Positions 4,261 to 5,311 of a stretch of 64,000 nucleotides of DNA are shown piece by piece (positions within the stretch are counted from its first letter, which is position 1; every line of letters starts with the position of its first letter). The stretch is taken from assembly GCA_043825855.1 (NCBI GenBank), contig JBDRRJ010000021.1, positions 2,938 through 66,937 of the forward strand. The letters are read 5' to 3'. The stretch is from Pseudomonadota bacterium. GTDB lineage: Bacteria > Desulfobacterota > UBA8473. The notes below the pieces were generated by a model. It was not told where the DNA came from. It was given only the letters and a program-made list of their open reading frames with translations, and searched no databases. The position numbers and the translations under genes are program-made.

Positions 4261-4530
4261 TTATTCAACCCTTTTCCCATACATAATAACTCCATGTTGT
4301 GCGGTTAGAATGTACTCAATTTCCTCTCCTATCTCGGGTTTTGTTTCAAATTCCTTTATTATTGCTACCCTTCCGCCTTCTATCTCAATTATTGGTAGTC
4401 CATCCAGATTACGATATGAACTTATAATGCCTTTTATAGTACCTTCCTGTTTTTTTGGTTTTCTAGGACTATGCGTTTTGCAAGTTATACCACTTGCTGG
4501 AAAATCTTTTTCATTTTGATCGTCGTTCAT
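4261..4530 (-). CDS. hypothetical protein (possible small beta-barrel)
   Basis: 89 aa ORF with strong RBS (AGGAGG) on minus strand, co-oriented with aroC. Confidence 0.6.
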   Translation of the reverse strand: MNDDQNEKDFPASGITCKTHSPRKPKKQEGTIKGIISSYRNLDGLPIIEIEGGRVAIIKEFETKPEIGEEIEYILTAQHGVIMYGKRVE

Positions 4531-4611: not shown

Positions 4612-4761
4612 TCAGTCTTTGAGATTGGTTCTTTTCCCAGGTTGATCCTCAACCGTACACGAATCTTTCATTCATGTACTGATGCCAAGCTTTGGTAGAA
4701 CCCAAGCGTTTAATATAAGATATACAGCTATGATCAAAATGAAAATCAGGGTTTCACTCAT
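4612..4761 (-). CDS. candidate small membrane selenoprotein (49 aa, Sec at codon 30)
   Basis: RBS AAGGTGA then ATG; MSETLIFILIIAVYLILNAWVLPKLGIST-TGA-MKDSCTVEDQPGKRTNLKD*; hairpin GGTTGA-GGA-TCAACC begins 17 nt after the TGA. Confidence 0.6.
4640..4654 (-). promoter_or_regulatory. putative bacterial SECIS apical stem-loop
   Basis: GGTTGAGGATCAACC on minus strand: 6-bp stem with G-initiated loop, downstream of in-frame TGA (4674-4672). Confidence 0.5.
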
Positions 4762-5311
4762 TGTTCTCACCTTTTAATGATTCCTTAGATCTCATGACCT
4801 TAATCTTGAGCCGTCTTTTAAAAAAGAACCATTCTTTTAATGAAAATATATGACTTATCTTAAATTTGTCAAGGGAAATATAGCTATTACAAAGTATATT
4901 GAAGAACATCGTACCTGCCTTTAGATTCTTGCCAAAAAAATCTTCGGTTATTTCTAATGACAAATGGCTGGCAAATTTATTCTTGTTCTATTTTTCCTTC
5001 TGCACTTGAAGAATAAGAAAGAGATAAAACAGAGGACAAATTGTTTTTCACCTTTAAGTTTAAAAACAAATATTTGTTTTTAATTTACAATTCGGTATTT
5101 TTCGGTTATATTTTCCTAATTAAATTATTGTTACTGAGAAGATAAATACTGGGGCATAAAAAACAACTTTAACATCTTTTTGACCCAAGTCGGATATTGA
5201 AACTTTCATTGAGTGTAATTAGTTTTTTTATAGTTAATTAACAATTATCGATCAATAGATATGATATTCGGTCCGAAAAATTAAAAATTAACCTTTTTGG
5301 GAGACTGGAAA

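Follow-up and report, generated by a model that had tools for sequence, protein, structure and literature searches.

A predicted 49-residue membrane selenoprotein with a U-x4-C motif and a putative SECIS hairpin in a Desulfobacterota genome

The window, i.e. the whole 64,000-nucleotide stretch of DNA that was analysed, carries on its minus strand a putative micro-selenoprotein gene of 49 codons (4612..4761), located in a 535-bp AT-rich spacer that adjoins secA and overlapped by other small ORFs. Its frame starts at an ATG (4761..4759), placed 5 nt after a Shine-Dalgarno-like AAGGTGA seen in the sequence (4767..4773, minus strand), and reads MSETLIFILIIAVYLILNAWVLPKLGIST, an in-frame TGA (4674..4672), MKDSCTVEDQPGKRTNLKD, and a final TGA (4614..4612). 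Purine-rich GGAG or GGGG stretches were found directly 5′ of the ATG in relatives of the gene, too. Based on the sequence and on alignments A1 and A4, residues 4-22 (TLIFILIIAVYLILNAWVL; 4696..4752, minus strand), which are hydrophobic, were assigned to a predicted transmembrane helix. An L22-P23-x-x-G26 turn (4684..4698, minus strand), taken from an alignment of 91 sequences, lies C-terminal to this helix. The TGA at codon 30 (4672..4674, minus strand), the candidate selenocysteine codon (U30) according to homologue comparison, is preceded by a nearly invariant T29, and the nearly invariant Cys35 (4657..4659, minus strand) would be the partner of U30 in a U-x4-C motif. All elements listed in a preliminary description of this DNA were present on the minus strand: the ribosome-binding site, the ATG, one transmembrane helix, and the series KLGIST, TGA, MKDSC (ending with Cys35), followed by 14 codons and the second TGA. 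The gene had also been described as missed by standard ORF listing, and the plain ORF list of the window indeed holds only a 32-aa frame (4672..4770) that ends at the first TGA.

A sigma-70-like promoter candidate (TTGACA-16 nt-TATATT; 4845..4872, minus strand) with 11 of 12 consensus matches is positioned about 84 nt upstream of the ATG; such sites are not enriched in the region (six found vs 4.8 expected), and the promoter is a candidate only. A 69-aa TTG-started ORF (4754..4963, minus strand) runs across the beginning of the micro-gene in a different frame within the AT-rich secA spacer and is probably spurious. An ORF of 89 aa that has an AAGGAGG of its own (4261..4530, minus strand) lies 81 nt downstream. 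It was found 3′ of the micro-gene in six distinct loci within the taxonomic family of the window, where an ORF of 89-92 aa lacking a Pfam match is the only conserved neighbour. The 89-aa ORF of the window matched no Pfam family at E <= 1e-5, only three proteins resembling it were detected in a large protein collection, and it may be a lineage-specific partner of the micro-gene. Since a sequence scan revealed no terminator-like site between 4200 and 5300, the micro-gene may be co-transcribed with the 89-aa ORF (4530..4261) and aroC. Among the sequencing runs listed as matching the stretch there was no RNA run; the best-matching DNA sample came from groundwater.

Searching a word index for homologues, with the micro-protein as the only query, gave no match. 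The six-frame search of 40 relatives, on the other side, returned 17 matches at E <= 0.002 (including the window's own), each with one in-frame TGA. Frames were read through for the window and 18 relatives, ranging from the same genus to the same phylum, leaving out rows with E > 0.05 that lacked the motif (L020-L025 and L027-L031). In 19 out of 19 the TGA falls into one column. LP(K/R)(L/F)G(I/V)xT stands before it, most frames have a Cys at +5 or +6, and the frames remain open for 14-35 codons past it. The second TGA (4614..4612) was also considered as a selenocysteine codon and discarded, since TAA or TAG closes the frame in other lineages and conservation does not extend past this point.

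Profile A1, built from 17 Sec forms, had a match in 140 of the 301 genomes that were drawn from the window's phylum as a whole. One in-frame TGA was present in 141 of the 144 phylum matches; two further matches were partial and stopped short of the column, and a single one (genome G123) has TAA. In the Planctomycetota, the phylum of a Pirellulaceae MAG, 28 of 251 genomes had a match, 26 of these with one TGA and two partial. Retention of the TGA in homologues, proposed earlier as a check, was thereby seen in both phyla. The opposite pattern, TAA or TAG at this codon, had been named as evidence against selenocysteine; it occurred in one homologue, that of G123.

The locus in G123 (L192; G123:C11:52600-53050) reads ...FPKLGIKF-TAA-IRQKSC..., with the TAA at 245-247 of L192. 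Phe occupies the position of T29, the Cys at +5 and a GTTGCA/TGCAAC hairpin are kept, and SelA is still encoded in the genome. Apparently, this is a recent knock-out copy of the micro-gene. A TAA at the column is also what might be expected if the UGA were a true stop. The product would then be a transmembrane micropeptide of 29 residues, and the hairpin and the open frame would serve mRNA stability, regulation or some other role. That the codon is TGA, and neither TAA nor TAG, in 141 of 144 matches speaks against a true stop.

When 1.84 billion cluster representatives were searched exhaustively with a profile, there were 1493 matches at E <= 0.001, which may include similarity of the helix only, and 48 at E <= 1e-10. 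The latter, together with homologues of the same architecture in 140 of the 301 phylum genomes and in other phyla, argue against an ORF that arose by chance in an AT-rich spacer and is no gene at all. Such an origin could be suspected from the very short frame, the 535-bp spacer beside secA and the overlapping small ORFs; we regard it as extremely improbable.

The best 150 of the 1493 matches were parsed by a motif script, a few rows being misparsed or junk (e.g. the repeat protein P0111). At least 97 had Cys at the selenocysteine column, 25 had W (i.e. gene calls with a code in which TGA encodes Trp), 18 terminated exactly before the column, and five had R, L or G. The spacing between the column and the following Cys was x4 in 79 of the 97 Cys forms and in 24 of the 25 W forms. 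Since 25 of these best 150 matches carry W and 18 end before the column, public collections hold the family mostly mis-translated or shortened at the UGA. The 18 short entries are also compatible with a true stop. Protein P0111 (592 aa), also detected with the profile, has eight copies of VVLPKMGVRT, spaced by a repeat unit of about 67 residues; it may represent repetitive DNA in translation and not a true relative. Another entry, P0104 (171 aa), is a natural fusion of the transmembrane helix and a C-x4-C module with a full thioredoxin domain (TIGR01068, E 1e-35).

For a codon census, metagenome contigs were scanned with the Cys-form alignment A3, and 80 loci were kept. The codon at the selenocysteine column was TGC in 37, TGT in 15, and TGA in 28 loci. 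Cys-codon homologues, which the preliminary description had suggested looking for, hence amount to 52 of 80, and reading on through TGC or TGT in these relatives counts against a true stop. Two near-identical metagenome genes, L150 (TGA) and L152 (TGC), differ at the key codon, and the Cys form L152 retains a SECIS-like hairpin (GTGCGGT/ACCGCAC). This pair is a snapshot of a switch between Sec and Cys.

The putative bacterial SECIS hairpin of the window (4640..4654, minus strand) lies within the coding sequence at codons 37-41 (T-V-E-D-Q). As described earlier, it has a GGTTGA/TCAACC stem, which starts 17 nt past the first TGA, and a loop that begins with G. The arms (4654..4649 and 4645..4640) form 6 bp, and the GGA loop begins 23 nt past the UGA. 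This geometry agrees with the published bSECIS model, for which the available part of the source gives a G in a small apical loop at 16-37 nt from the UGA (PMC13188914). In energy, the single hairpin of the window is not beyond chance (-8.1 kcal/mol, z = -1.07, with 24 of 200 shuffles folding equally well), a result that a true stop would also accommodate.

Comparison among relatives gave a different picture. RNAalifold, applied to 48 distinct Sec-form sequences (alignment A2), predicted the hairpin independently, with compensatory changes in five of six pairs; conservation of the hairpin in homologues, also put forward as a check beforehand, was confirmed in this way. The paired arms include GGTTGA/TCAACC, GTATCGA/TCGATAC, GTGCCG/CGGCAC, and GTGCGG/CCGCAC, and the loops of the Sec forms have G as first or second base. 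In an 8-pair version, 78.1% of the cells in A2 were paired, compared with 26-41% when the 3′ partner was slid by 1-3 columns. The covariation score was 0.536 vs 0.07-0.14 for the slid partner and was reached by none of 500 shuffles, with the bias somewhat in favour of the 8-pair structure since it was derived from the same A2 sequences. Free of this derivation bias is a comparison of the best hairpin beginning 10-30 nt past the codon in the metagenome set. Its median energy was -10.8 kcal/mol in 25 distinct TGA forms vs -3.95 kcal/mol in 42 distinct Cys forms (Mann-Whitney p = 1.5e-8), at a G+C of 0.63 in both. A strong hairpin was kept in two Cys forms (L120 and L152), as expected after a recent change from Sec to Cys.

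The hairpin of the micro-gene is thus a predicted SECIS element. It is the comparison with relatives, and not the window's hairpin alone, that marks the TGA, the Cys and the hairpin as selected features. Past Cys35, the apparent conservation of residues (TVEDQ, SIEDR, AVDRR, AVDPH) tracks the RNA pairing, and the functional end of the protein proper is probably C35. Three further observations disagree with the UGA being a true stop: the Cys at +5 is nearly invariant, the hairpin accompanies the TGA forms and is mostly absent from the Cys forms, and no T-run occurs 3′ of the hairpin nor any terminator-like site in the scanned region. Overall, we judge a true stop very improbable, and the in-frame UGA of the micro-gene is, from comparative evidence, very likely read as selenocysteine.

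The machinery for selenocysteine insertion, whose presence the preliminary description had asked to confirm, was complete in the window's genome (an assembly of 36 contigs, 97% complete). We detected selA (E 1e-167), the SelB wing domain within a 643-aa frame, selD (G000:C8:109241-110167, L033), and a tRNA-SeC(tca). The selD gene itself contains one in-frame TGA and therefore encodes a selenoprotein SelD. Across the phylum, SelA was found in 278 of the 301 sampled genomes, and for this reason its co-occurrence with the micro-gene is non-discriminating. At least seven carriers of the micro-gene had no SelA match; as SelB is encoded in five out of five of those tested, the missing matches are probably an assembly matter.

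Across 91 aligned Sec and Cys forms, P23, G26, and U/C30 never vary, and at least 90% of the sequences keep M1, L22, T29, and C35. Conservation past the TGA, named beforehand as supporting evidence, was seen as an open frame and a nearly invariant Cys five residues on. All relatives of the micro-gene that were read have the hydrophobic stretch. Within the helix, position 18 is Asn in most aligned rows and Gln in some, and an aromatic residue occupies position 20 near the C-terminal end. Polar residues such as Asn within a transmembrane helix can mediate contacts between helices, and Asn18 suggests such a helix-helix contact. Counts of Lys plus Arg in 69 Cys forms were 0.45 in the N-terminal flank vs 1.09 in the 15 residues past the helix; on account of these counts, a cytoplasmic location of the T-U-x4-C motif is mildly favoured. 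A lipoprotein signal was considered from the sequence and dismissed, as the Cys is located 11 residues past the hydrophobic core and the N-region has no net positive charge.

To compare neighbouring genes, ORFs were collected around 130 loci with distinct core peptides. These comprise (i) 31 loci of the window's own phylum with 1.5-kb flanks, (ii) 17 loci from a genome-contig collection with 4-kb flanks, (iii) 21 loci from the Planctomycetota scan, and (iv) 61 metagenome loci; flank lengths thus differ among the sets, and related loci are not independent. The most frequent neighbour, present in 21 of the 130 loci and with both Sec and Cys forms, was a protein of about 475 aa combining an MBL fold with rhodanese. 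It has the build of a persulfide dioxygenase-rhodanese fusion, and in most of the 21 loci its gene is directly upstream of the micro-gene on the same strand. DsrE or methyltransferase-DsrE proteins were found in 10, TauE/SafE in 9, and Pyr_redox_2 in 3 of the 130 loci. At least one member of this sulfur set (MBL plus rhodanese, DsrE, TauE, Pyr_redox_2) occurred in 27 of 130 loci, among them 14 of the 17 genome-contig loci (mostly Planctomycetota MAGs) and none of the 31 own-phylum loci, for which flanks were only 1.5 kb. Thioredoxin, DsbD-TM-thioredoxin or DUF255 proteins adjoined 10 of the 130 loci. Thioredoxin-like neighbours were present in 3 of the 31 own-phylum loci, one of which (L017) has the gene order ArsR, micro-gene, Trx, Trx-like, TrxR-like. 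Mostly, the micro-gene stands alone in the window's own phylum. The remaining recurrent neighbours were RND pumps or CusB-type HlyD adaptors (14 of 130 loci), ArsR-type regulators (8), cytochrome bd-like proteins (6), zf-HC2 anti-sigma factors (5), and O-methyltransferases (5).

Part of these contexts would fit a real selenoprotein whose U-x4-C motif binds a soft metal such as Cu(I), Hg(II), Cd or As(III), with a role in metal handling or sensing at the membrane. ArsR-family regulators (8 of 130 loci) and RND pumps with CusB-type HlyD adaptors (14 of 130) point in this direction, and membrane, metal-binding selenoproteins, e.g. MerT-like ones, appear in a review table (PMC13188914). Against metal binding, no metal-binding family of Pfam or NCBIfam matched the protein, and the neighbours examined included no P-type ATPase metal transporter, MerA or MerP. 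Moreover, the ArsR genes are mostly in operons with persulfide-dioxygenase-like and TauE genes, a pattern that the accessible part of PMC5823870 describes for sulfide-sensing ArsR/BigR systems. On balance we consider the soft-metal role unlikely.

The real selenoprotein could also serve some larger membrane complex or transporter as an accessory subunit of small size. AcrZ and KdpF are small subunits of this kind. Asn18 would provide the contact to the partner, and U/C30 would serve redox tuning or sensing. Besides the polar (Asn, in some Gln) and aromatic residues of the helix, the frequency of membrane-protein neighbours (TauE in 9, AcrB in 8, and cytochrome bd-like proteins in 6 loci, as well as DsbD-TM fusions) is consistent with such a subunit. 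Yet no single partner family is common across lineages, and the gene mostly stands alone in the window's phylum; this role appears quite unlikely to us.

Taken as a whole, the explanation that we prefer is that the locus is a real protein-coding gene for a 49-residue single-pass membrane selenoprotein, decoded through SelB and the SECIS hairpin, which may act as a redox or chalcogen relay. We assign this explanation a probability of roughly 0.85. Under this reading, the ribosome would start at the ATG at 4761 and meet the UGA at codon 30, while the mRNA would form the short G-loop hairpin (4654..4640) 17 nt past the UGA. SelB carrying Sec-tRNA(Sec) would bind this hairpin, leading to insertion of selenocysteine, and translation would run for 19 more codons to a UGA that is not accompanied by such a hairpin. 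The L-P-x-x-G end of the helix would place T-U-x4-C at the membrane surface, probably facing the cytoplasm, with a variable charged tail behind it. The selenol/thiol pair might form a reversible selenenylsulfide, or carry sulfane sulfur or a soft metal. The protein may thereby act as a membrane-tethered redox or chalcogen relay that is reduced by thioredoxin-type partners. Sulfidic anaerobes of the window's phylum would have become fixed for the Sec form, with a gene that mostly stands by itself.

For the function, anatomy and neighbours lead us to guess that a selenol/thiol pair tethered to the membrane serves as a redox relay or a relay for sulfane sulfur and is serviced by thioredoxin-type proteins, because relatives outside the phylum are often located in operons with persulfide-dioxygenase, rhodanese, TauE, DsrE or thioredoxin genes. 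For the window itself this functional reading is weak, with sulfur-oxidation neighbours in 0 of 31 own-phylum loci and mixed contexts. More specifically, the micro-selenoprotein and its Cys forms could be an unrecognised component of bacterial reactive-sulfur handling, a proposal that we offer tentatively and hold to be doubtful. Here, the membrane-tethered U/C-x4-C peptide would move sulfane sulfur or reducing equivalents between membrane enzymes or exporters (SQR-like, TauE) on one side and, on the other, cytoplasmic proteins of the DsrE, thioredoxin or persulfide dioxygenase-rhodanese type. Since a selenol resists over-oxidation, sulfidic anaerobes would have fixed the Sec form.

The preliminary description had recognised no classical selenoprotein family in this protein, and the database searches agree. 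The window's micro-protein matched no Pfam family at E <= 10, and consequently neither MerT (PF02411) nor PF12669, and no family of NCBIfam (June 2026) or Pfam was found for it or for 12 further Sec forms. For 11 unfused relatives from the profile search (nine Cys, two W forms), Pfam matches at E <= 1 were at chance level only and fell well short of the family cut-offs (best E 0.024), and NCBIfam gave no match; all that the fusion P0104 matched were thioredoxin families. A protein atlas returned solely an unnamed 'hypothetical protein' cluster (score 0.88). Among the 119 families in Table 1 of a 2026 review by Zhang et al. (PMC13188914) there is no single-helix U-x4-C protein either, and the text of that paper contains neither 'lovleyi' nor 'Geobacter'. 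A literature search on the UxxxxC motif gave no relevant paper.

A motif search of supplementary files, as far as these were available, revealed six sequences in Data Set S1 of the deep-Sep paper with a matching build, all under one placeholder label that refers to 'Geobacter lovleyi'. Like the window's protein, these six sequences combine a short N-terminus and a hydrophobic helix with (I/V)LP(K/R)(L/M)G(I/V)x-T-U-x4-C and a charged tail. Compared by eye with these available sequences, the window's protein has the transmembrane helix and the LP(K/R)xG(I/V)xT-U-x4-C of the labelled family. In the accessible part of the deep-Sep paper, the labelled sequences are listed among the 'known selenoprotein genes' of 20 test genomes, mostly Thermodesulfobacteriota, and the family had therefore been predicted before. 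It is, in other words, already predicted under a placeholder name, for which we found no model and no main-text description. The label does not appear in the Table S1 spreadsheet of the deep-Sep paper; it was not found in the available portions of a 2022 review's table or of the Peng 2016 and GOS 2008 main texts, and a literature search for the original report of the family found none. The earlier wording 'poorly described micro-selenoprotein' is apt, given this placeholder in a supplementary data set. Deng et al. 2026 reportedly screened groundwater MAGs, according to the accessible part of a review citing that work.

Several known systems share single features with the micro-selenoprotein. 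SELENOK and SELENOS are small single-pass membrane selenoproteins of the eukaryotic ER with a disordered tail, Sec near the C-terminus, and a SECIS in the 3′UTR; we liken them to the micro-selenoprotein by build alone and claim no sequence relation. PF12669, which we take to be the FeoB-associated Cys-rich membrane protein, is likewise a protein of about 50 residues with an N-terminal transmembrane helix followed by a Cys motif; its Cys pattern is different, and the window's protein gave no match to it, as noted above. TsoA (LULAXC motif, NF045695) has Sec a few residues before a Cys as well, but as U-x3-C, and the review table gives sulfur-related neighbours for it (PMC13188914). Unlike the micro-selenoprotein, its model spans 144 positions, and no transmembrane anchor is present in those TsoA sequences that were available. 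Identity with TsoA was rejected, as NF045695 matched neither the window's protein nor anything in its own genome. Finally, MerT (putative mercuric transport, PF02411, C/SxxU) and YeeE/YedE resemble the micro-selenoprotein in having Sec in or near a membrane protein; they are listed as membrane selenoproteins in the review table, with a presumed thiol-type or metal-binding role (PMC13188914). Both differ from it in being multi-pass proteins of known Pfam families.

For this family, the present analysis adds its breadth, an invariant core, a covarying SECIS with Cys forms as control, and operon contexts. Standard annotation misses or shortens the micro-gene, with public calls stopping at the UGA or reading it as Trp, although the family is carried by nearly half of the sampled genomes (140 of 301) of a Sec-rich phylum and is also present in Planctomycetota. 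With a model based on P-x2-G-x2-T-U/C-x4-C, the invariant core, one more selenoprotein could be annotated in a very large number of genomes. With its small size, single helix, and simple motif, the protein would be an easy system in which to study selenol function at the membrane surface, and its association in operons with persulfide and thioredoxin genes provides concrete, testable hypotheses on what that function may be.
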